From Planctomycetota bacterium (GTDB lineage: Bacteria; Planctomycetota; SZUA-567; H5-PLA8), in NCBI GenBank assembly GCA_038227875.1, contig JBBRPR010000043.1, forward strand, positions 1-64,000: a stretch of 64,000 nt of DNA, given 5' to 3'. The notes under the pieces were generated by a model. It was not told where the DNA came from, made no database searches, and saw nothing but the letters and a program-made list of their open reading frames with translations. The position numbers and the translations under genes are program-made. Of the stretch, positions 14,373 to 23,865 are shown piece by piece (positions within the stretch are counted from its first letter, which is position 1; every line of letters starts with the position of its first letter).

Positions 14373-16106
14373 ATGCAAAAACAATACGGATTCGCACGCG
14401 TAGCGTGCATTGCTCTGGTTCTGGCGCTCGCTGGATTTTCATATGCGATTGCGACAGCCGGACGAAGCACCGAAGTAGCCACGGTGGCTGCGCGCACGGT
14501 GTCTTCCAACCTGAATTTCTCCAATCCGTTTGTCGATCCAACTTTGAAGTCGACGCTCGACCGCGACCTGGGTGATGCCGTCATCGGCAGCGCCGTGGTC
14601 CGCCGCGTCACCGCGACCGGCGGCGTGCGTCCGTACTCATTTACCTCGACGTCGGTGAGCACCAACTCGTCGCTGGGCCTCGACAGCAGTGGTCTCTTCC
14701 ACACCCTGCCCGTCACCCCAGCCTCGGGCACGCAGTTGACCACCTACGGTCCGCTGACGGGCACACCAGGCAACTTCCGCTTCAACGTTACGGTCGCCGA
14801 TAACTCGGGCACCAACGTTCCCAAGACCGAACCGTACCGCCTGTCGATTTTCTCCAATTCGACAACGGCGTTCCGCTTCGCCATCACCAGCCTGAGCAAC
14901 GCCACGCAATTCAACGAGTACGCTGACTACATTTCCACGATCAACGGTCATGGACCGCTGAGCTACACGGTGTCGAACGTGACGGCAGGTGGCACTTCCG
15001 CTGCCAGTCTCGAATCCCTCGGCCTGACCATCGGCAAGGACGGCCAGATCTTCGGCATCCCGCTGAAGGCTGGCGCGATCACTTTCACGGTGGTGGCCAA
15101 GGACAGCACCGGCGCGACGGCTTCACCCCGCACGGGTGTGGGTTCCAGCCAGACATTCACGATCAACGTCGCCGGCAACTCGGTGATTCAGGACGTCATT
15201 GTGGTCACCTCACTGACCTGCAGCGGCGATAGCGCCGTCGGCGGCAAGGACAAGATCTCCATCAGCGGCGTCTACAATCCGCTGCTCTTCAGCTCGATCG
15301 GCACGACGATCACGCTGCGCCTCAATGGCTATGTGATCACCGGCACGATCGGATCGCGGGGCAAGATCTCCAACCTGAGCCTGCAGGACTTCGCGGCCCG
15401 GGCCAAGGTTCCGACACTCAAGGGAACGGTTAACGGCAAGGGTCAGTTCAAGCTGCAGGTTTCGAACGAAAGCTTCGGGCGCAGTGGACTGCTCGGTACG
15501 ATCGTTTCGAACGTCAATGCCATGGTTGAAGTGCAGATCGGCACCAAGGTCGACGGCTTCAACGCCGTCTCGCTCAACAACAAGGGCCGCGGCACGAAGT
15601 TTGGACTGGGCTTCAAGCTGGGCCAGGCCAATAAGAAGTCGGGCCCGCTCAATGCCTCCCTCGGCGGTGCGTTTATCCTGACCTCCGTGGCCGGCAAGGA
15701 CGACACGAAGGGCGCCACCGGCGACTCCTTCAAGGTCGGTATTATCGCGGTTCCGCCCAGCGGCATCACCTTCGCTGGCGCAACCAAGGCGACGGTATCG
15801 GTGGGAACATCCTTCACTGATAGCCCGTCGGTCACGTCCAGCAAGGGTATCGTCAAGACGGGCCGCATCGACGCCAAGCAGGCCAACAAGGTCACGCGCC
15901 TGTCGCTCTCCGAAAAGGGCAAGGGTAGCTATCAGACCAGCTTCCTGGCCTCCTCGCAGACGGGCATCAAGCTCTCGTCGGCCGGTACTTCGACTGGCGT
16001 CCCGTACGCGACGGGAATCACGATCAACAGCACCACGCCGTTTGGCGGCGTCGGCTCCCTGTTGATCTTCCCGAAGGGTAAGGGTTACACCAGCGCTCAG
16101 AAGTAA
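14373..16106 (+). CDS. Secreted Ser/Thr/Gly-rich protein with putative Ig domains (surface protein, paralog 1)
   Basis: Signal peptide; ATGGVRPYSF, GLTIGKDGQIFGIPL..G.ITFTV.AKDS (putative Ig); followed by a terminator. Confidence 0.75.
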   Translation: MQKQYGFARVACIALVLALAGFSYAIATAGRSTEVATVAARTVSSNLNFSNPFVDPTLKSTLDRDLGDAVIGSAVVRRVTATGGVRPYSFTSTSVSTNSSLGLDSSGLFHTLPVTPASGTQLTTYGPLTGTPGNFRFNVTVADNSGTNVPKTEPYRLSIFSNSTTAFRFAITSLSNATQFNEYADYISTINGHGPLSYTVSNVTAGGTSAASLESLGLTIGKDGQIFGIPLKAGAITFTVVAKDSTGATASPRTGVGSSQTFTINVAGNSVIQDVIVVTSLTCSGDSAVGGKDKISISGVYNPLLFSSIGTTITLRLNGYVITGTIGSRGKISNLSLQDFAARAKVPTLKGTVNGKGQFKLQVSNESFGRSGLLGTIVSNVNAMVEVQIGTKVDGFNAVSLNNKGRGTKFGLGFKLGQANKKSGPLNASLGGAFILTSVAGKDDTKGATGDSFKVGIIAVPPSGITFAGATKATVSVGTSFTDSPSVTSSKGIVKTGRIDAKQANKVTRLSLSEKGKGSYQTSFLASSQTGIKLSSAGTSTGVPYATGITINSTTPFGGVGSLLIFPKGKGYTSAQK

Positions 16107-16402: not shown

Positions 16403-18292
16403 GTGTTACTCGCTAAGAGCCAGACCGTTCGGCGTGCTGTGATCCTGGGGCTGATCCTCGCCGTCGCCGGTTTCTGTTATGCCACCGGTACGAGTTACGC
16501 CACGGCCAGCCGTTCGACCGACGTGCCTGAAGCCGGGCCGCGGCTCGTGGGCAGCTCCAACCTGCGCTTCATGAATCCGCGTCTGCCCACCGGTGAATTC
16601 GATCTCGGTGACGCCACCTACGGATCGATGATCCAGCGTTACGTCACCGCCGCCGGCGGCGTGCGGCCGTACAAGTACGTCTCCCCCGATTTGTTGAGCA
16701 AGCTGGCCAACAATTCCAGCCTGTTCCTCGGGAACTCCGGTTACCTGTTTGGCTCCATCACCTCTAATACCCGTCCGCCGTTGGTCTTTTCCGTTACCCT
16801 GACGGACAGCACCGGTTCCCAGACTCGAAATCAGTCCGTGAACGGTACGTTCCGCATCGGCATTCAGCTCGGTGGTGCGCAGAGCTTCCGCTTCGCGGTC
16901 GACAACATCAACAACGGCCAGAAGGGCCTCAGCTACGCCGGAGCACTCGACACACTCGGCGGAGTGGGTACCGTGACCTACTCGGTGATCCCCAACACCC
17001 TGACCGTCAACGGCACGCCGCGCGGCACCAATGGCGCGCTGGAGACCCTCGGCCTCTCGCTCTCCGCCGACGGCACGATCAGCGGCAAGCCGCTGGAATC
17101 CGGACTCGTCAGCTTCAAGGCACACGCCACGGATACGCTGAAGCGCACCGCCAACGACCGCACCAACACGGTGCCCGACCAGGTTGTTGCGTTCAATATT
17201 GAAGACAACGCCATCGCCTCGACCGATTACACGACGCTCAACTGCACCGTCCGCGGCGACCTGGGCGCCACCAACAAGGACACGATCAAGTTCAACGGCC
17301 TGATCAACATGACCGGCAACGCCATCAACTCGCTGCGCTTCACGACGTTCCAGTTCCGCCTGGGCGCCTACAACGTCACCGGCCGGGTGGACATCAGCGG
17401 CAACGTGGTGAACATCAAGCAGAACACGCTCAAGCTTCCCGACGGCAGCCAGTTCAAGGCGAAGATCGACGCTCACAAGGGCACGCTCTCCGGTTCCTTG
17501 AGCAAAGCCACCGTCGCCAAGCTGCTCAACGGCGCCAGCATCACCGACCGCAGCACGTCGCGCCTGGGCATGCAGTTCGTGCTCTCCAACAACGTCGTTT
17601 GCGCCGATACGCTGGAATTCGCTTCGCGCCGCAAGGGCAACAAGATCGCGCTGGATTACAACATGAGCCGGACGGGCAGACCGCTGGGCGGCACCTTCCA
17701 GATCCTCACTGTTGTCGGCAAGGACGGCACCACGATCAGCGGCACCCGCGGTGACGCCTGGAACGCCAAGTTCCTGATGATTCCGCGCTTCGGCATCGAC
17801 ACCAATCCCGGTCTCGACTCGCTTTCGTCGATCACCGTCCGCATCGGCCAGAACTTCGTCCAGAAGATTCCTGCCAACGCATTCACCAGCAACAAGAGCG
17901 GGAGCATCAGCCTGCTGAAGCCGGCGACCAAGGGCGAACAGGTCGCCAAGTTCAAGCTCGATGGCCGCAAGTTCGTCGGCGAAGTCCAGACGTTCGTGCT
18001 CGGCTCGACGCGCACCTTCATCTCGCCGGCCGTAGACGTGGTCAATCCGGCCTCGCCTGCCGGCAATGGCGCCATCCCGATCAGCAGCTTTGTGACTACC
18101 GGCTTCGATCTGGGAATCGACCTGGCCCGCACCGGCAACAACGCCAGCCTCACCGGCGAATACGGCAAGCTGGTCATCGGCGTGCCCAACCAGAAGGCCT
18201 GGGTCGACAACATCGGCAAGGCCAGCCGCGGCTTCCAGATTCCCGCCGCGCCACAGCCCGTTCCGAACAACAACTTCCGCTTGGATAAGTAA
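16403..18292 (+). CDS. Secreted protein with putative Ig domains (surface protein, paralog 2)
   Basis: GTG start after AAGGAG; signal peptide; shares DLGDA..GS, AGGVRPY, FRFA and LE.LGL..S.DG.I.G.PL motifs with 14373. Confidence 0.75.
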   Translation: MLLAKSQTVRRAVILGLILAVAGFCYATGTSYATASRSTDVPEAGPRLVGSSNLRFMNPRLPTGEFDLGDATYGSMIQRYVTAAGGVRPYKYVSPDLLSKLANNSSLFLGNSGYLFGSITSNTRPPLVFSVTLTDSTGSQTRNQSVNGTFRIGIQLGGAQSFRFAVDNINNGQKGLSYAGALDTLGGVGTVTYSVIPNTLTVNGTPRGTNGALETLGLSLSADGTISGKPLESGLVSFKAHATDTLKRTANDRTNTVPDQVVAFNIEDNAIASTDYTTLNCTVRGDLGATNKDTIKFNGLINMTGNAINSLRFTTFQFRLGAYNVTGRVDISGNVVNIKQNTLKLPDGSQFKAKIDAHKGTLSGSLSKATVAKLLNGASITDRSTSRLGMQFVLSNNVVCADTLEFASRRKGNKIALDYNMSRTGRPLGGTFQILTVVGKDGTTISGTRGDAWNAKFLMIPRFGIDTNPGLDSLSSITVRIGQNFVQKIPANAFTSNKSGSISLLKPATKGEQVAKFKLDGRKFVGEVQTFVLGSTRTFISPAVDVVNPASPAGNGAIPISSFVTTGFDLGIDLARTGNNASLTGEYGKLVIGVPNQKAWVDNIGKASRGFQIPAAPQPVPNNNFRLDK

Positions 18293-18313
18293 GTAAGGAA
18301 GTAATCCTGAAAC

Positions 18314-18345
18314 AAAAACTCCCCGCGCAAGCGGGGAGTTTTTTT
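18314..18345. terminator. Bidirectional rho-independent terminator
   Basis: aaaaactccccgc-gcaa-gcggggagttttttt between convergent genes. Confidence 0.9.
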
Positions 18346-18380
18346 GTTCCTTAGTCCTCAGTCTTCTCAGTCCTCGCCGT

Positions 18381-19850
18381 TCAAGCCTTATTCCACCCCT
18401 TCACGATATTCTCCGTGGTGAGCTGTGCGTAGAGCTCCTCGATCTGCTCGCGGGAATTGGAGACCCGAATGTCGCGCTCCAGGCTGGTCTTCCGGTTGGG
18501 GGAGAAGTCAGTGAAGTGGACCACGAAGCCGGGATAGTTGCTGCCTTCGCCTTCCTTGTTCGTCTTCCACATCACGAATTTGCGAACCATTGTCTGGCCC
18601 TTCAGCACTTTGGTGTAGACCTCGCGCTTCAGGACTTCACTCTTGGGCAGTGAAAGCTTGCGCGCATCGGCTTCCAGCATGCGCACTTCGACCAGGTCGG
18701 AGACCTGCTTGATGCGCAGGTCCGCGGGCTTGACCTGCTTGTCTTCGCGCCGGCGCACGAACTGCGGCGAGATCACGCTGACCAGCGGCAGGCGGCGGAT
18801 CACGTTGTACTTCTTCGCCTTGCTGTCGTAATCGAGGACCATGCGGTCGATCGAACTGCCGCGCGTGGTCTGCGAAATCAGATCCAGGCAGCTCATTTCA
18901 ATCACCCATTCGGGGCGGACCATTTCATACGCGACGTGATCGGGATTGACTTCGGCGTACTCGCTTTCGACCACGGTGTCCTTCAGGTCTGAATAAAACG
19001 AGCGGCGGTCTTCGTCGGAAAAGCCACCGCCGACGCGCGCGAAGAGATGAAACGTCCCGTCGTCGCGCATCAGCGCCACGAGCATGTCGTGGAGCATGCC
19101 TTTGCGTTCGTCGGTCGATTCAGTAAACCCCACGACCACGGCGTCCATGTTGTGCCGCGGTTTGATCTTGAACATGCCGGCCGTGTCGCTGCGCGCGACC
19201 AGGCCTTCGTCGCCGCCGGTCTCGACCCACTGTTCGAATTTCTTCTCGATCTCCGCCGTGGACTTGGCGAAAATCGCTTCGACCGGCGTCACACGCTCGC
19301 CGCCGTCGAAGATCTTCCGGATGCGCTTCCAGGTCTCGGGAAACGCGGAGACGACCGGCTTGTCGTCGGTCTCGAGCAGATCGAAGACCGCGAAGCGCAG
19401 GCTGCCCAGGTCCTCCTTGCTCTCCGGCTGGCGCGCGACGCGGCTGACGTCGTGAACGCGCGCGCGTTTGCCGTCACTGCGCTGCACGTACATTTCACCC
19501 GCGACCAGCGCCGCTTTAACGCCGGCCTTGTTGAGCAGTTCCGCCGCTTCGTTGATGAACGGCAGACCGACGCGGACGGTGCCGCCGGGGTTAACGGTGA
19601 TCGCCTGCTTGCCGTCGTAGACCAGCACCGTGAACTCGCCGTCGACCTTGCGGCTGACGTGGTACTCGCCTTCCGGCAACTTCTTTTTGATGTCGTCCTT
19701 GCCCAGTGCCATCATGCGCGAGCCGGAGAGGCGGCGGTATTCCTGAGCGCGGCGGTGGGAGGTTGGATCGGAAAGCTCCAGCGCGCTGCCGACAGCGTAG
19801 TCGCCGAACTTCGTCTCCAGGCGGCTCTTATTGATGTTCAACGTTACCAT
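18381..19850 (-). CDS. Minimal ATP-dependent DNA ligase (adenylation and OB domains) with a C-terminal WGR-like domain
   Basis: Motif I SRKVDGE, III AGEMYV, IIIa FAVFDLL, IV EGLVAR, V FKIKP, OB-fold VGGGFSD, VI PQFVRRREDK. Confidence 0.85.
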   Translation of the reverse strand: MVTLNINKSRLETKFGDYAVGSALELSDPTSHRRAQEYRRLSGSRMMALGKDDIKKKLPEGEYHVSRKVDGEFTVLVYDGKQAITVNPGGTVRVGLPFINEAAELLNKAGVKAALVAGEMYVQRSDGKRARVHDVSRVARQPESKEDLGSLRFAVFDLLETDDKPVVSAFPETWKRIRKIFDGGERVTPVEAIFAKSTAEIEKKFEQWVETGGDEGLVARSDTAGMFKIKPRHNMDAVVVGFTESTDERKGMLHDMLVALMRDDGTFHLFARVGGGFSDEDRRSFYSDLKDTVVESEYAEVNPDHVAYEMVRPEWVIEMSCLDLISQTTRGSSIDRMVLDYDSKAKKYNVIRRLPLVSVISPQFVRRREDKQVKPADLRIKQVSDLVEVRMLEADARKLSLPKSEVLKREVYTKVLKGQTMVRKFVMWKTNKEGEGSNYPGFVVHFTDFSPNRKTSLERDIRVSNSREQIEELYAQLTTENIVKGWNKA

Positions 19851-19895
19851 GAGAACCTCAGGGGCCAGGGTAAGGGGTCAGAGTGGGAAGTGTGC

Positions 19896-20840
19896 TCAGC
19901 TCTTCTTGCGTCCTTTTTTCGGCGCGGGCTTTTTCTCTTCGGACTTTTCGGGCTCCGCCGGAGTTTCTTCGACGACCTCGGCCTTTACTTTTTTCAATTT
20001 CTTCGCCGGAACATCCGCGGGCTTCTCCGCTGCTTTTTCAGCTTTTACCGGCAGCGCGGGAGCCGCAGGTTCCGGCGGCTTTTCAGCCACGGGCGCGGCC
20101 GGTGCAGCGAGCGGAGCGGGTGGGGCCGGCGGTGCGGCGATCGGCTCCGGCGCCTTCAATTCCATGTTGGAGAGATGCAGGATCAGGCAGTACTTTTCGC
20201 CCTGCGTGCGCCCTTCCAGAAAGCCGCGGTACGACGTGCCGCCGCGCTGAAAGACCAGCGGCAGATTCGATTTCGGCCCCGCGCCCATCAACATCAGGCT
20301 CTGCTTCTCTTCCAGATCCTTGGCCATCGCGAAAAGGAAGTCGAAGGTCAGGCCGTTGACGTGAACAATCTGCAGCTTCGTCGCGAAGACGAATTTGTTG
20401 AAGACTTCACTCTTCTTCATCAGCTTGCCCGACCACTTCAGCGGCGTTTCCGTGGCGGTGTTCGGCGGCAGCACTTTGCGCGGTCGGCGTTCTTTCTCGG
20501 TGCCGTCGGGATTGCGGACGATCTCCCACTCCTGAACCTTGTGGACGATCTTCTTGTCGGCGTCGATGTACACCCGCGACGTGTCGCTCAGGAAACGGCC
20601 GTAGCTTTCGAAGTCGATTTCCGGATCGCCCTTGAGCAGCAGCTCCGACACTTTCTCGAGCGCACCGGCCTGCTTGATCAGCTCATCGCAATCGCGATCG
20701 ATGGTGCAACGCAGGATGCGGAAGTTCGACGCCTGCCGCCCCTTCTCATCCAGCCACCGCACGCGCAGCGGCGTGCGCACCGTCTCCGTATTGACGATGG
20801 CATCGCGATTGTTGCTGTTGGCGAGATTGATCGAGCCCAT
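19896..20840 (-). CDS. Hypothetical protein, possibly Ku-like, with a Pro/Ala/Lys-rich tail
   Basis: AGGAG RBS; about 230 aa globular core, then a basic low-complexity tail (PAKKLKKVK...KKPAPKKGRKKS). The ORF is solid; the Ku assignment is inference. Confidence 0.6.
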   Translation of the reverse strand: MGSINLANSNNRDAIVNTETVRTPLRVRWLDEKGRQASNFRILRCTIDRDCDELIKQAGALEKVSELLLKGDPEIDFESYGRFLSDTSRVYIDADKKIVHKVQEWEIVRNPDGTEKERRPRKVLPPNTATETPLKWSGKLMKKSEVFNKFVFATKLQIVHVNGLTFDFLFAMAKDLEEKQSLMLMGAGPKSNLPLVFQRGGTSYRGFLEGRTQGEKYCLILHLSNMELKAPEPIAAPPAPPAPLAAPAAPVAEKPPEPAAPALPVKAEKAAEKPADVPAKKLKKVKAEVVEETPAEPEKSEEKKPAPKKGRKKS

Positions 20841-20892
20841 TTTAACTCCTGGGGACTGAGTCCGGGGTCTTGGGACCGGGGAACAACCGCAC

Positions 20893-21510
20893 TCACATCA
20901 TTCCAAAGTCCAACGATTCGTCTTCGCCTTCGGCTGCTTCGGTATCGTCTTCCACGGGCGCCGCCGCCTGTTCCAAACCTACGAAATGAATCGACGTCGG
21001 CTGACCCACGCACATGAAGACCGTGCCGTCCTGTCCGGCGAGCAGGAAGCCGACGTCCGCCTCCAGTCCGCCGCGGAAACTATAGGGGAACGAGAAGATC
21101 GTCCCTTTCTTGAGCTCCGCGGCCAGCGGCGCGAGATCGCCCTCGCAGCGCAGCACGTAGACGCCTTTGATGTTGTGCGAGAGGTAATCTTCGAGTGTCG
21201 CGAGCTTGGTCAGCGGCACCGGCGCACCGTAGGTTGACTGCACCGGCGTGATGGTCCGGCCTTCGGGGTCGACGGGCTGCAGCTTGGTTTTGTCGAGCCA
21301 CAAACCATCGGACGAAAGATACGCAAACGAGCTCCCGCCCTGTCCGACGATGGTGCGGCCGTCGTCGGCGAGGGTGGCCAGCTGGCATTTGCGGCTCTTG
21401 CCGTCGAGCGCTTCGACATCGACGAAGCCGTAAAGCTTCGTGCGGTCGACCTTGTCGGGACTGCAGACAAAGTCCGTGCCGTTGAACTGAAACGTCAGAG
21501 CTCTCGCCAT
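20893..21510 (-). CDS. Hypothetical protein, possibly Ku-like, with an acidic C-terminus
   Basis: 205 aa from MARALTF; beta-rich; ends EDDTEAAEGEDESLDFGMM; first gene of the ligase operon. Confidence 0.6.
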   Translation of the reverse strand: MARALTFQFNGTDFVCSPDKVDRTKLYGFVDVEALDGKSRKCQLATLADDGRTIVGQGGSSFAYLSSDGLWLDKTKLQPVDPEGRTITPVQSTYGAPVPLTKLATLEDYLSHNIKGVYVLRCEGDLAPLAAELKKGTIFSFPYSFRGGLEADVGFLLAGQDGTVFMCVGQPTSIHFVGLEQAAAPVEDDTEAAEGEDESLDFGMM

Positions 21511-21711
21511 ATCCGCACCCCAATTTATAGGTTGTAGTGTCAAAACATAACAGAGCGCCGTCGAACGGGCAAGAAGGCTTGGCGAGCGGGCACTCACATC
21601 ACAAATTGACCACCCGCCGCTCAGAAACACCATCTAATTGGCCAGCGCGCCTATTCTCAATCCCCTTCGCATCTGATTAACTGAAAACTTCATGACCGGA
21701 GAACCTCAACA

Positions 21712-23865
21712 GTGCCAAACGTCACATTCGATCAACGCTCCGTCCGCCTGGATGGCAAGCCTGTGCCGATTATTTGCGGGGCGATCCACTATGCGCGCAG
21801 CACGCCGGGAATGTGGCCGGAACTGCTTCGCGCTTCCGTCGAAGCGGGCATCAACACCATCGATACGTATGTGTTCTGGGGTTTGCACGAACGCGAGAAG
21901 CGCAGGTACGACTTCACCGGCCGCCTGGATCTCGCCTACTTCTTGAGCCTCTGTCAGCAGCACAAATTGAACGTGCTGCTGCGCATCGGACCGTACATTT
22001 GTGCGGAGACCAATTTTGGAGGCCTGCCGCCGTGGCTGATTCACGAACCCGGGCTGGTCACACGCACCGATAACGCTGCTTGGAAACGCGAAGTGCTGAC
22101 GTGGTGCAAGGTGCTGATGGCGCAGATCGGAGAATTTCAGGCGACGCGCGGCGGTCCGGTGATCCTGGCGCAGCTGGAGAATGAATACAACACCGTCGCC
22201 AAGCATTACGGCGCCGACGGCCCGAAATACATGGACTGGGTCATCGCCAGTGCGAAGGAAATGGGACTGGAAGTACCGCTGGTAATGTGCGAAGCGCCCG
22301 GCGACAACAAGCTGGAACTCCACGACGCGTCGCTGCCGCGCATTATTAAAGGGATGAACGGCTTCGCCATCGCCGATCGCGTTCCGGAATTTCAGCGCCA
22401 GTTTCCCGCCGCGCCGCCGATCTGGACGGAAGCGTGGGGCGGGTGGTACACGAATTTCGGCGACGTGACCCACTTCCGCGAGGACGCCGATTTCGCGTGC
22501 GCGATCGCGCACTTTTTCGCCGTTGGCGGAGCCGGCGTCAGCTACTACATGTGGCACGGCGGCACGAATTTCGGTCGCGAATCGGTCTACATGCAGACGA
22601 CGACCTACGATTCCAACGCGCCGCTGGACGAATATGGCCTGCCGCAGCGCGCCTTCGCGCACCTCAAACGCCTCAACCACATCGTCGCTGATCACGCCGA
22701 AGTGCTGCTCGAAGGCACGCGCAGCGTTCAGGTGCTCGAAGCGCCGCGCGAGAAGGAACCGCTGCCGCGCGCCGCGATTTATTCGTGCGCGAAAGGCACG
22801 CGGACGCTCGCGTTTCTGATCAACGAATCCGGGCAACCGTACACCATGAAATCCGGCGCACTCTCGATCGCGTTAAAATCAAAGAGCTGCGCGATCACGC
22901 TCGATCTCAACGGCGACACACGCGTGCTCTTTGAAAGTCATCCGGCCACTGCCGAGGCCGCGATTCAACCGCCACCCGCCGCGCAGTGGGCGGCGTCGAA
23001 CGTCGAACTGAACTTCGTTGCTTTCGATGAGCCGCTCCCCGATGAACAACCGACAAAATTCTCGAACGCGATTGCGATGTCCGAGCCGCGATCGATGCTG
23101 CCGCACACGCGCGATCTGAGCGACTACGGCTGGTACCAGACGGTGCTCAGCAGCGCCACCGACCGCGATGCGACGGTGGTCCTGCCGGAAGTTCACGACT
23201 TCTCGACGCTGTACCTCAACGGAAAATTTGTCGGTAGTCAGCCGGAACGCTTGAACGAGGACCCGAAGATTTTCGCCAAGCACACCTATAATGTGCGGCT
23301 GAAGAAGGGCGAGAATCGCATCAGTATCCTCGCCAGCGCGCTGGGTCTGATCAAAGGCGATTGGGCTTACAACGAACCGATGAGCAAAGAGCGCAAAGGA
23401 GTCATCGGTGCGATGCTCGTCGACGGCATGCCGCAATCGCTGTGGTGGACGCTCCACGCCGGACTCTTTGGGGAACGCGCGCGGCTCTTCGCGCCCGACA
23501 CGTCCGATCTGGCCGCGTGGCAGGCCGGGCCGCTCACGCCGCGCCGCCTGCGCTGGTACCGCGCGAAATTCAAAACGCCGGATTCGCTGTTGAAAGCCCG
23601 GGCGCTCGCGCTCGATGTCGGCGCGCTCTACAAGGGCTTGATCTGGCTTAATGGCGAGTGCCTTGGCCGCTACTGGCAGATTCCCGCAACCGACTACGTC
23701 GCCGAATGGATGCGCGGCATGACGCAAACCTACGGCGCCGGCCAACCCGTTCAGCAGCGCTATCACATTCCGAAAGACTGGCTGAGGGCCGAGAACACGC
23801 TGGTGGTCCTGGAAGAAACGGAGGCCTTTCCCCGCGGTGTGAAGCTGTTGGAGCGCGCGGTGTAG
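21712..23865 (+). CDS. Beta-galactosidase, glycoside hydrolase family 35
   Basis: GAIHYAR, INTIDTYVFW..HE, LRIGPYICAE..GGLP.WL, GGPVILAQLENEY, WTEAWGGWY, YYMWHGGTNFG, YD..APLDEYG, KG..W.NG..LGRYW. Confidence 0.95.
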   Translation: MPNVTFDQRSVRLDGKPVPIICGAIHYARSTPGMWPELLRASVEAGINTIDTYVFWGLHEREKRRYDFTGRLDLAYFLSLCQQHKLNVLLRIGPYICAETNFGGLPPWLIHEPGLVTRTDNAAWKREVLTWCKVLMAQIGEFQATRGGPVILAQLENEYNTVAKHYGADGPKYMDWVIASAKEMGLEVPLVMCEAPGDNKLELHDASLPRIIKGMNGFAIADRVPEFQRQFPAAPPIWTEAWGGWYTNFGDVTHFREDADFACAIAHFFAVGGAGVSYYMWHGGTNFGRESVYMQTTTYDSNAPLDEYGLPQRAFAHLKRLNHIVADHAEVLLEGTRSVQVLEAPREKEPLPRAAIYSCAKGTRTLAFLINESGQPYTMKSGALSIALKSKSCAITLDLNGDTRVLFESHPATAEAAIQPPPAAQWAASNVELNFVAFDEPLPDEQPTKFSNAIAMSEPRSMLPHTRDLSDYGWYQTVLSSATDRDATVVLPEVHDFSTLYLNGKFVGSQPERLNEDPKIFAKHTYNVRLKKGENRISILASALGLIKGDWAYNEPMSKERKGVIGAMLVDGMPQSLWWTLHAGLFGERARLFAPDTSDLAAWQAGPLTPRRLRWYRAKFKTPDSLLKARALALDVGALYKGLIWLNGECLGRYWQIPATDYVAEWMRGMTQTYGAGQPVQQRYHIPKDWLRAENTLVVLEETEAFPRGVKLLERAV

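Follow-up and report, generated by a model that had tools for sequence, protein, structure and literature searches.

Gene organization of the locus

The window, i.e., the whole stretch of DNA analyzed here, comprises 64,000 nucleotides of contig JBBRPR010000043.1 from a Planctomycetota bacterium. Three of its minus-strand genes form an operon in the order Protein A, Ku-fold protein and ligase, with gaps of 45 and 52 nt, and a hairpin lies beyond the last gene.

20893..21510, minus strand: Protein A, 205 aa plus stop codon, delimited by homologue alignment; acidic C-terminal tail ending in DFGMM
19896..20840, minus strand: Ku-fold protein, 314 aa plus stop codon; its AlphaFold2 model matches Ku
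18381..19850, minus strand: ATP-dependent DNA ligase gene, ATG start, 489 aa plus stop codon; third and last in the operon
18314..18343, no strand assigned: hairpin with a 13-bp stem flanked by A and T runs, located after the ligase stop codon and before the convergent upstream gene, found by consensus scan

The mechanical ORF of Protein A extends to 21633; its start was set at M42, where the homologues begin, and these are about 203-205 aa long. Protein A has 536 relatives. The hairpin is terminator-like in sequence and may act as such. A scan of 18000-22000 found no sigma-70-like promoter, with a consensus that is uninformative for Planctomycetota. Two metatranscriptomic libraries, each from a different study, contain contigs nearly identical to positions 19418-19787; they cover the operon only partly and give weak support for transcription because DNA carry-over is possible, and contigs of DNA or RNA reads cannot show absence or co-transcription of the operon genes.

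The initial annotation, which concerned the ligase, had missed the conserved operon with the Ku-fold protein. We judge this arrangement to be the more telling feature of the locus.

Family and catalytic motifs of the ligase

The ligase gene is present as one copy in the genome, and its catalytic part comprises the following features.

19146..19703, minus strand: nucleotidyltransferase domain, about residues 50-235, with motifs I, III, IIIa, IV and V, from alignments to archaeal ligases
19632..19649, minus strand: motif I, K68-V-D-G-E-F73, aligned to KYDGAR of 3rr5
18738..19103, minus strand: OB-fold domain (PF04679), residues 250-371, with motif VI, SPQFVRRREDK, at its end

Judging from its sequence, the product is probably an active ATP-dependent DNA ligase. 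Pfam assigned the OB domain with 34.2 bits against a cut-off of 27.5 (E = 3.4e-8). PF01068 is precomputed on most homologues and was also detected on the homologues L018 and L020; on the ligase of the window itself, it was not reported at E ≤ 1. The protein matches phrog_114 "ATP-dependent DNA ligase" (E = 4.7e-20), and among solved structures the archaeal ligase 3rr5_A is the closest (E = 5.9e-12). The best matches throughout were DNA ligases, namely archaeal ligases, LIG1 and LIG4, and no LigD chain was found among the solved relatives at E ≤ 0.001. At least 1738 relatives of the ligase exist. All seven matching NCBIfam ligase models scored far under their cut-offs: the best was the LigD-type TIGR02779 (55.3 bits against 227.75), and others were TIGR00574 (42.3 against 217.8), NF006592 (40.2 against 200) and NF006078 (38.8 against 296). 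The proposal that this is a distinct ligase clade thus holds by these cut-offs, which place it outside the described families; on model scores, it is an undescribed clade set apart from the named classes.

K68 is the predicted AMP-accepting Lys. As had been noticed earlier, motif I lacks the canonical Arg: in the alignment with 3rr5 this residue is replaced by Phe (F73), and Arg is absent in the relatives examined. Among 18 relatives, SRKxDGEF is invariant or nearly so and the sixth residue of motif I is F in 18/18, while in nine sequences covering both ligase clades it is F, L, T or Y and never R (0/9). K68, D70 and G71 are invariant in both alignments. The reading of motif III as AGE also stood (A117-G118-E119, with G and E invariant), but its departure from DGE is weaker than was claimed because the archaeal ligase 3rr5 has VEGE, not DGE. 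Invariant residues were likewise found in motif IIIa (F153/F156/D157), motif IV (EGLVAR; E215-G216, and R220, which replaces the Lys of the archaeal ligase), motif V (FKIKPR; K228 and K230) and motif VI (D370 and K371). The absence of the motif I Arg across the whole family weakens the case for catalytic competence; a ligase family working without this residue would be of interest to enzymologists. The absence of an N-terminal DNA-binding domain, another point of the initial annotation, was borne out: the first 60 residues gave no Pfam match at E ≤ 10, and the alignments to solved ligases start near residue 51-61.

C-terminal domain of the ligase

18384..18638, minus strand: C-terminal WGR-fold domain, about residues 405-489, from the AlphaFold2 model and two fold searches

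A WGR-like domain without the WGR tripeptide had been proposed for the C-terminus. The string concerned (RKFVMW...FVVHF.D...EQIEELY...ENIVKGW) is present and is among the best-conserved parts of the ligase, with T447, D448, P451, R453, G485 and W486 invariant across both ligase clades. The AlphaFold2 model of the last ~85 residues (pLDDT 88.9) has four strands, a helix and the terminal KGW, with TDFSPNRK where WGR is expected. PARP WGR domains came first in both structure searches of this model, with moderate scores, which argues for a WGR-type fold. Foldseek against the PDB placed WGR entries of PARP1/2/3 in 9 of its first 10 rows (probability 0.98-1.00, with weak E-values of 0.056-0.12), and several top entries are complexes with 5'-phosphorylated DNA breaks. 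In the VIA search of 48,161 chains, rows 1-3 and 5 were WGR domains of PARP1/PARP3 (Z 8.6, 8.2, 8.0 and 7.7), the best being that of PARP1 (rmsd 3.2 Å over 81 residues), whose Z of 8.6 is, according to the tool, within the range often reached by unmatched models. Row 4 (2ra8_A) is presumably a bacterial WGR protein.

In contrast to the structure searches, the HMM search did not recover the family: the 105-aa C-terminal piece had no PF05406 (WGR) match at E ≤ 10, and PF05406 is on 0 of the 120 listed ligase homologues. The same model detects four domains elsewhere in this genome. When the piece was compared by hhalign with these four domains, the last strand, the helix and KKGW aligned to KKGY, although the match was weak (probability 9.8%, E = 0.0033). 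By eye, the extended hhalign alignment shows F-T-D at the tripeptide position, and Y-T-D in most relatives, so that the tripeptide is indeed absent while the terminal K-G-W is retained. Two Pfam matches on the piece, Sec3_C-term (0.025) and CoV_NSP15_M (0.04), were sub-threshold and unrelated and were rejected. In the ESM Atlas, the piece hit unnamed clusters alone (best score 0.90). A phmmer search against 1.84 billion representatives returned 444 proteins at E ≤ 0.001; an informal look at the 150 listed matches, made without a formal count, found the domain essentially C-terminal in ligase-sized proteins or in short fragments, with no clearly different architecture among them.

The domain thus resembles the WGR domains of PARP1/2/3 in its modeled fold, with strands followed by a helix, and in the terminal K-G-aromatic motif (KGW in the cassette, KGY in the genome's own WGR domains). 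It differs in that it is carried by a ligase and not by an ADP-ribosyltransferase, has no W-G-R and is 7-16% identical. Taken together, the sequence observation of the initial annotation was confirmed and its interpretation supported. If the interpretation is right, the WGR fold would gain a concrete bacterial job as the break-recognition module of a ligase.

The Ku-fold protein

20136-20840, minus strand: conserved core of the Ku-fold protein, residues 1-235
19899-20135, minus strand: Lys/Pro/Ala-rich tail of the Ku-fold protein, residues 236-314

The family of the middle protein has at least 2285 members, all without annotation. The protein had no Pfam match (E ≤ 1, including Ku PF02735) and no NCBIfam or PADLOC match; hhalign against 11 canonical Ku cores gave a probability of 0.4%, i.e., no sequence-level link to Ku, and a profile search of the PDB returned one match that is not meaningful (E = 0.29). 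The AlphaFold2 model is moderately confident (mean pLDDT 66.4; 42-72 in the N-terminal half). Foldseek found 53 PDB matches at E ≤ 0.001 (best 6.5e-6), and all rows listed contain Ku, including Ku of M. tuberculosis and B. subtilis, in alignments of ~230-260 columns that span the whole model. The VIA search gave Z 12.2 for Ku80, 12.0 for M. tuberculosis Ku (rmsd 2.9 Å over 111 residues) and 11.8 for B. subtilis Ku; rows 1-16 were all Ku/SPOC-type barrels (Z ≥ 7.5), after which scores drop to 5.3. As far as its model can tell, the middle protein is a beta-barrel of the Ku fold. In the VIA search, SPOC domains nearly equal Ku (Z 10.4-11.9). SPOC domains do not encircle DNA.

Protein A and its predicted complex with the Ku-fold protein

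Pfam gave no match on the homologues of Protein A, a profile search of the PDB gave none with Protein A, and the ESM Atlas had none that was usable. Hhalign of Protein A against canonical Ku gave a probability of 2.4%. Complex prediction pairs Protein A with the Ku-fold protein in an extensive, intertwined assembly (ipSAE 0.68 against 0.10 for the best control); 116 of 157 solved complexes attain the mark passed by this pair, as do 2 of 215 mismatched pairs. Three runs share at least 76% of contacts, with a partner pLDDT of at least 74. The interface on the Ku-fold protein consists of residues 21-48 and 84-113, which are poorly defined in the monomer model. Some of this score may come from the model having learned Ku70/80.

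Paralogy of the two proteins was considered and is not claimed: small alignments gave a co-linear hhalign match (E = 0.017) with RGG..GFL paired in both, but E falls to 0.47 with alignments of 66 sequences and larger.

An alternative that we regard as unlikely takes the middle protein for a SPOC-like barrel that binds proteins, gives Protein A and the Ku-fold protein a role solely as adaptors or regulators, and has the ligase sense and seal nicks on its own in single-strand-break or excision repair. The closeness of the SPOC scores to those of Ku and the missing sequence signal to Ku would fit this reading, as would the ligase's lack of end-processing domains and the fact that PARP WGR domains detect nicks too, with single-strand-break complexes among the Foldseek titles. 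However, Foldseek, whose scoring takes sequence and local geometry into account as well, has only Ku-containing entries among the rows listed, and aligns them over the whole model. The poorly ordered hairpin segments are predicted to become the interface with Protein A, as the arms of Ku would. In addition, the barrel protein carries basic tails of the DNA-binding type, and its gene adjoins that of the ligase, like canonical ku in the same genome.

Distribution and genomic neighborhood

Searching the phylum gave seven loci, and all seven keep the three genes in the same order, including those whose ligases are 33-38% identical. The Ku-fold gene was found at 480 loci in several phyla, in large-genome environmental bacteria. 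Among the best 80 of these 480 loci, the ligase occurs in 71 and Protein A in 68; no ligase adjoins the Ku-fold gene in nine, and Protein A is absent upstream in six loci that retain the Ku-fold protein and the ligase. With antisense ORFs and ligase fragments excluded, every other gene family is limited to at most 13 of the best 80 loci.

It seems improbable to us that the cassette serves mobile elements or genome conflict (maintenance, circularization or anti-phage defense) rather than chromosome repair, despite several features that point this way. The distribution is patchy: of 301 genomes sampled from the phylum, only 7 encode the ligase, one of them in three paralogous copies. Its spread over Planctomycetota, Myxococcota, Verrucomicrobiota, Cyanobacteria, Leptospiraceae and others at 50-79% identity is suggestive of horizontal transfer; on the other hand, a cross-phylum identity of ~60% is, in our judgment, higher than expected for a defense gene. 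Ligases of a distant clade carry a classic AAA ATPase as a fusion, which is seen in 0 of 80 loci of the window's clade; in the distant clade, DUF2924 and a large serine recombinase directly follow the cassette (2/2 loci examined), and AbiEii or a LexA-like repressor lies near it. A MoxR-DUF5682-VWA set also adjoins the cassette at locus L020. In the window and the close clade, by contrast, the flanking genes are ordinary and vary by locus (GH35 beta-galactosidase, SurA-like PPIase, transporters and planctomycete cytochromes), and the 80 loci share no recurrent recombinase family. Likewise, none of the three proteins matched a PADLOC-DB 2.0 family at E ≤ 1, and the Ku-fold protein had no match in 50,697 phage and 72,556 plasmid records.

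A possible second end-joining or nick-sealing module

With moderate confidence, we read the cassette as a second, non-canonical end-joining or nick-sealing module composed of an end-binding pair, Protein A and the Ku-fold protein, and a WGR-fold ligase. The analysis itself shows the family and motifs of the ligase, one modeled fold that resembles WGR and one that resembles Ku, a conserved gene order and a patchy occurrence over several phyla; that the proteins bind DNA ends, form a ring and recruit the ligase, and what they do for the cell, is what we infer. The ligase would be co-transcribed with the two upstream genes. Protein A and the Ku-fold protein would hold DNA ends as a Ku-like pair, to which the ligase would then be recruited on the ends. 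Its WGR-fold domain may recognize the break as PARP WGR domains do, and the NTase-OB core would thereby be positioned for sealing nicks or joining compatible ends. No end-processing is expected because the cassette has no polymerase or nuclease module. A basic tail is present on the Ku-fold protein in this genome and on the ligase in many relatives, which fits the two proteins acting on one DNA substrate. The same genome encodes a canonical Ku beside an ATP-dependent ligase on contig C21, plus LigA, which leaves a second end-joining system without an evident need and counts against this reading.

A more far-reaching version, to which we give limited credence, is that several phyla share an unrecognized second end-joining pathway, in which a heterodimeric Ku-like ring works with a Lig1/Lig4-type ligase bearing a PARP-type WGR sensor, and an AAA unfoldase in the sister clade could strip the topologically trapped ring from DNA once it is sealed, like p97 acting on Ku in eukaryotes. 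If the break is found by such a sensor, the ligase would not depend on a LigD polymerase domain. Were it true, no known prokaryotic break-repair module would resemble the eukaryotic ones more closely than this combination of a heterodimer, a WGR sensor, a Lig1/4-like core and AAA extraction, with implications for how Ku70/80 and PARP-type break sensing arose.

RNA ligases also lack the motif I Arg that is missing in this ligase family, and some close homologues carry a precomputed match to PF09414 "RNA_ligase" or a capping enzyme. That the ligase joins RNA or RNA-DNA junctions in an RNA-repair module is nevertheless very improbable: an RNA-binding function of WGR in other proteins, described in the available text of PMC7470946, would favor it, but the best matches are DNA ligases (archaeal, LIG1 and LIG4), the OB domain and motif VI are those of a DNA ligase, the partner is folded like a protein that binds DNA ends, and RtcB, Pnkp, Hen1, kinase or phosphatase genes recur in 0 of 80 neighborhoods.

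Comparison with known systems

Bacterial end joining is viewed as a two-part system of homodimeric Ku and LigD and is surveyed with the Pfam Ku model, which misses the Ku-fold protein of the cassette. As an end-joining module, the cassette would add a distinct Ku-ligase system made of three unannotated families, and so compact a kit of three genes is a possible tool. Literature searches on WGR plus ligase, Ku-like plus ligase or WGR, and NHEJ in Planctomycetes or Myxococc- found no description of it, subscription journals lying outside their scope. In the available text of a 2025 paper on Ku evolution, there is no mention of Planctomyc- or Myxococc- names.

The cassette resembles bacterial NHEJ in that a Ku-fold gene lies beside an ATP-dependent ligase gene, mirroring the pair on C21, and in the basic, low-complexity C-terminal tail of its barrel protein. 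The C-terminal tail of mycobacterial Ku is Lys-rich. The variable, extended C-terminus of bacterial Ku binds DNA and LigD, according to the available text of PMC9638933. Unlike in bacterial NHEJ, the barrel protein escapes both the Pfam Ku model and the Ku profile, and its predicted partner is the unrelated-looking Protein A, whereas canonical Ku is a homodimer. The ligase differs from LigD in its score (55.3 bits against the cut-off of 227.75), in having a WGR-fold domain instead of a polymerase or phosphoesterase domain, and in its nearest solved relatives, which are of the archaeal/Lig1/Lig4 type.

The two different subunits, predicted to pair, recall Ku70/Ku80 with LIG4, and the ligase core is related to that of LIG1/LIG4; however, the cassette has no vWA, SAP, BRCT or XRCC4-type parts, and paralogy of the subunits is unsupported. 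The eukaryotic AAA ATPase p97 (VCP) extracts Ku trapped on repaired DNA (PMC6297141, available text); the ligase-AAA fusion of the distant clade offers an analogy only, given its absence from the 80 loci of the window's clade.

Ligase-WGR fusions as such are already known, in another type: the available text of Williamson and Leiros 2020 (PMC7470946) describes NT-OB_2-WGR and N-terminal-WGR ligases from delta-proteobacteria and Planctomycetia, and mentions no operon with a Ku-fold protein. The cassette ligase shares with the NT-OB_2-WGR ligases, as described there, a ligase core without the usual DNA-binding domain and a WGR module. It differs from them in its OB domain, which is PF04679 and not PF14743, in a WGR-fold domain that Pfam misses both here and on the listed homologues, and in the replacement of W-G-R, its signature being TDFSPNRK. 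The same genome also contains, on contig C70, a gene with an N-terminal Pfam-WGR domain and a ligase.

Architecture of the operon and identity of the ligase

Two further ORFs, read from the strand that carries the ligase gene, lie immediately upstream of it; the intergenic gaps are 45 and 52 nt. The features of the region are as follows.

14373-16106 and 16403-18292, plus strand: neighboring large ORFs of 577 and 629 aa, with hydrophobic N-termini and a common motif, TAxGGVRPY
18314-18343: strong hairpin with a 13-bp stem, an A run on one side and a T run on the other, between the ligase gene and the convergent 629-aa gene
18381-19850, minus strand: putative ATP-dependent DNA ligase (ORF call), 489 aa, ATG start
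19896-20840, minus strand: middle protein (predicted Ku fold), 314 aa
19899-20135, minus strand: Lys/Pro/Ala-rich low-complexity tail of the middle protein, about 80 residues (family alignment)
20893-21633, minus strand: mechanical ORF of protein A, 246 aa, probably 41 codons too long
20896-20960, minus strand: C-terminal end of protein A, with an acidic run ahead of a (M/L)DFGMM tip, conserved across phyla

The hairpin could be the terminator of both the ligase gene and the convergent gene. The 577-aa and 629-aa ORF products look like paralogous secreted proteins, and Pfam gives nothing for them at E ≤ 0.001. The neighbors of the operon are ordinary (a GH35 β-galactosidase, a SurA-like PPIase and the two large secreted-looking proteins). 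Near-identical contigs over 19418-19787 in two metatranscriptomic libraries, each from a separate study, give a weak indication that this part of the ligase gene is transcribed.

Judged from its sequence, the product of 18381-19850 is an ATP-dependent DNA ligase. PF04679, the Pfam OB domain, matches residues 250–371 (34.2 bits; gathering score 27.5), and phrog_114 ("ATP-dependent DNA ligase") covers residues 51–300 (E 4.7e-20). Archaeal ligases were the top PDB sequences in a phmmer search (3rr5_A, E 5.9e-12), and a profile of 18 relatives matched 30 PDB sequences at E ≤ 0.001, comprising archaeal ligases, human LIG1, LIG4 and 9fzx, with no LigD chain among them. All seven matches to NCBIfam ligase models lay far under the curated cut-offs, the top one being the LigD-type TIGR02779 (55.3, with a cut-off of 227.75).

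The initial annotation had described an atypical ligase without the motif I Arg, and alignment bears this out, with K68-V-D-G-E-F falling on K-Y-D-G-A-R of an archaeal ligase. SRKxDGEF is invariant or nearly so among 18 relatives (59–88% identity), and the sixth position of the motif is F, L, T or Y, and in no case R, in nine ligases drawn partly from the sister clade, a set of diverged cassette relatives at 33% identity. Motif III does read AGE as had been stated, with G118 and E119 invariant, but the loss of Asp is not remarkable because the archaeal reference ligase itself reads VEGE. Motif IV is EGLVAR, with an invariant Arg at the position of the archaeal-ligase Lys, while motifs V (FKIKPR) and VI (SPQFVRRREDK) are kept in the alignments. 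The ligase was also said to lack an N-terminal DNA-binding domain; none was detected by Pfam, including a search with the N-terminal piece, or in alignments to solved ligases.

Predicted WGR fold of the ligase C-terminal domain

The last 105 residues of the ligase, proposed in the initial annotation to be WGR-like, are unrecognized by Pfam even at E ≤ 10. AlphaFold2, supplied with an alignment of this piece and 31 natural fragments and relatives (33–63% identity), returned a model of high confidence (mean pLDDT 88.9, pTM 0.74) with four strands, then a helix, and a short strand at the end. When the model was searched against the PDB with Foldseek, there was no match at E ≤ 0.001; the WGR domains of PARP1, PARP2 and PARP3 made up nine of the top ten rows (probability 0.98–1.00, E 0.056–0.12), several of them from complexes with DNA breaks bearing a 5′ phosphate. 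The model was also compared with 48,161 representative chains by VIA-align, which is independent of Foldseek.

Table. Top VIA-align matches of the C-terminal domain model (rank, entry, Z, description)
1, 7s68_B, 8.6, PARP1 WGR, rmsd 3.2 Å over 81 residues
2, 2eoc, 8.2, PARP3 WGR
3, 2cr9, 8.0, PARP1 WGR
4, 2ra8_A, 7.8, Bacteroides protein, the N-terminal domain of which we take to be a WGR domain
5, 4dqy_C, 7.7, PARP1
6, 6sy0_A, 6.5, first unrelated fold

Since a best Z of 7–8 is common even for unmatched models, the weight of the match lies in the agreement of two independent methods and in the series of WGR entries that heads the ranking, rather than in the score itself. The WGR proposal is upheld as a fold because the model and two structure searches, both ranking PARP WGR domains at the top, agree; it holds at this level only, as the Pfam search (E ≤ 10) did not place the domain in the sequence-defined family PF05406. 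When the profile of the ligase domain was compared with those of the four WGR domains that Pfam detects in the contigs of the window's genome, the match was weak (probability 9.8%, E 0.0033); it pairs the last strand, the helix and the ligase KKGW with KKGY of the WGR domains. The WGR tripeptide is indeed absent, the position reading FTD in a by-eye alignment, and the invariant signature of the domain in this ligase family is T-D-x-x-P-x-R.

Ligases fused to WGR are not new as such. A 2020 review (PMC7470946) describes a bacterial NT-OB_2-WGR ligase cluster in δ-proteobacteria and Planctomycetia, as well as a Prochlorococcus ligase with an N-terminal WGR. Unlike these, the window ligase has PF04679 as its OB domain; it also differs from known fusions in that none of 120 listed homologues carries a precomputed WGR annotation and its family sits in a distinctive operon. 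The window's genome holds a ligase of the latter kind outside the window, where a 361-aa gene (contig C70:32229-32978) encodes an N-terminal Pfam WGR with a ligase nucleotidyltransferase domain.

Predicted fold of the middle protein and its predicted pairing with protein A

Neither the middle protein nor protein A has a match in Pfam, NCBIfam or PADLOC, or a meaningful one in PHROGs. The middle-protein family comprises at least 2285 members, usually of 235–240 aa and all without annotation; the conserved core is residues 1–235. The basic low-complexity tail, here on the middle protein, sits on the ligase C-terminus in many relatives (e.g., ligases P0027 and P0054 and cassette locus L020); it seems to move from one gene to the other.

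By its predicted structure, the middle protein has a Ku fold. AlphaFold2 on 29 family sequences gave a moderate model (mean pLDDT 66.4), with the C-terminal half at 74–91 and segments 23–49 and 80–127 poor. Foldseek returned 53 PDB matches at E ≤ 0.001 (best E 6.5e-6; alignments of ~230–260 columns), and the rows listed all contain Ku, namely human Ku80 in many complexes, M. tuberculosis Ku and B. subtilis Ku. VIA-align gave Z 12.2 for Ku80, 12.0 for M. tuberculosis Ku (2.9 Å over 111 residues) and 11.8 for B. subtilis Ku; rows 1–16 are Ku/SPOC-type barrels with Z of at least 7.5, and the next row is 5.3. SPOC domains scored 10.4–11.9, and hhalign against 11 canonical Ku cores of the phylum gave no Ku sequence signal (probability 0.4%). 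That the middle protein is a SPOC-like adaptor and the ligase a stand-alone nick sealer is an improbable reading.

Protein A is assigned 205 aa because all homologues begin at the equivalent of M42 (MARAL...) of the mechanical ORF. The 536 members of its family all lack a Pfam domain. The acidic tail with its (M/L)DFGMM tip resembles the partner-recruiting tails of SSB and ribosomal stalk proteins. Complex prediction with the Ku-fold core passed, with ipSAE 0.68, 0.68 and 0.66 in three runs (best control 0.10); among solved complexes 116 of 157 attain that mark, and among mismatched pairs 2 of 215. The score may partly be owed to the model's memory of Ku70/80, and the prediction indicates likeness, not binding. 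Contacts agree between the runs to at least 76%, with partner pLDDT of at least 74. The predicted interface is very large (~380 contacts) and draws on the poorly ordered segments 21–48 and 84–113 of the Ku-fold protein, in the way that Ku subunits would use their embracing arms. Protein A might itself be a diverged paralogue of Ku; hhalign between the two proteins gave E 0.017 for small alignments, weakening to 0.47 when the alignments were enlarged.

Distribution and gene neighborhoods

At E ≤ 1e-20, the ligase occurs in 7 of 301 genomes of the phylum (5 of 190 high-quality genomes), one of which holds three copies. All three genes stand together in the same order in each of the seven phylum-search loci, although the ligase is merely 33–38% identical in five. 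With a middle-protein profile, a scan of 185,579 species (one genome per species) confirmed 480 loci. The best 80 (50–79% identity) comprise 55 from Planctomycetota, 11 from Myxococcota or "Deltaproteobacteria", 4 from Verrucomicrobiota, 4 from Cyanobacteria (Hormoscilla, Oscillatoria), 3 from Pseudomonadota, 2 from one Leptospiraceae MAG and 1 from Thermoanaerobaculia, by a manual count of record titles in which short contigs may carry binning errors.

By tblastn, the ligase is encoded in 71 of these 80 loci and protein A in 68. Nine of the loci have no ligase beside the Ku-fold gene, and unrelated housekeeping genes follow it; protein A is absent upstream in six with both other genes, and ORFs intervene between the Ku-fold gene and the ligase in three (L061, L086, L087). 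With antisense ORFs and ligase fragments set aside, every other gene family is confined to 13 or fewer of the 80 neighborhoods. The Leptospiraceae MAG encodes protein A and the Ku-fold protein twice (L054, L072), with the ligase adjoining one copy only.

In the sister clade (L015, L016 and L017, the three copies of genome G162, and L019 of G289), the ligase-WGR is fused, across a stretch of ~300 unassigned residues, to a AAA ATPase of the classic type (PF00004, E 7.7e-40, plus AAA_lid_3), for a total of 1041–1042 aa; tblastn found the AAA segment in none of the best 80 loci. DUF2924 and a large serine recombinase lie downstream of the cassette in the two sister-clade loci examined, with AbiEii (L017) or a LexA-like gene (L019) nearby. 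Service to mobile elements or in genome conflict is a rather unlikely role for the cassette. In another genome (G012; L020:9837-14511, minus strand), genes for a MoxR-type AAA_5 ATPase, DUF5682 and a CoxE-like VWA protein stand immediately upstream of the cassette.

Proposed role of the cassette

The best-supported reading is that the three genes make up a DNA break-sealing module that is self-contained and horizontally mobile, for which we propose a mechanism. Protein A and the Ku-fold protein would form a Ku-like end binder, with the ligase as its dedicated sealing partner; the WGR-fold domain would stand in for the usual DNA-binding domain as a sensor of breaks or 5′ phosphates, or might instead be a docking site for the Ku-like pair. 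A role in RNA repair is very improbable. No description of the cassette was found in the literature searched, which covered papers accessible without subscription, and the proposed break-sealing module would be a variant of Ku-plus-ligase end joining with three unannotated families as its components. The window's genome also encodes LigA. On contig C21 (42227-43783), outside the window, a canonical ATP-dependent ligase lies ~440 bp upstream of a Pfam Ku.
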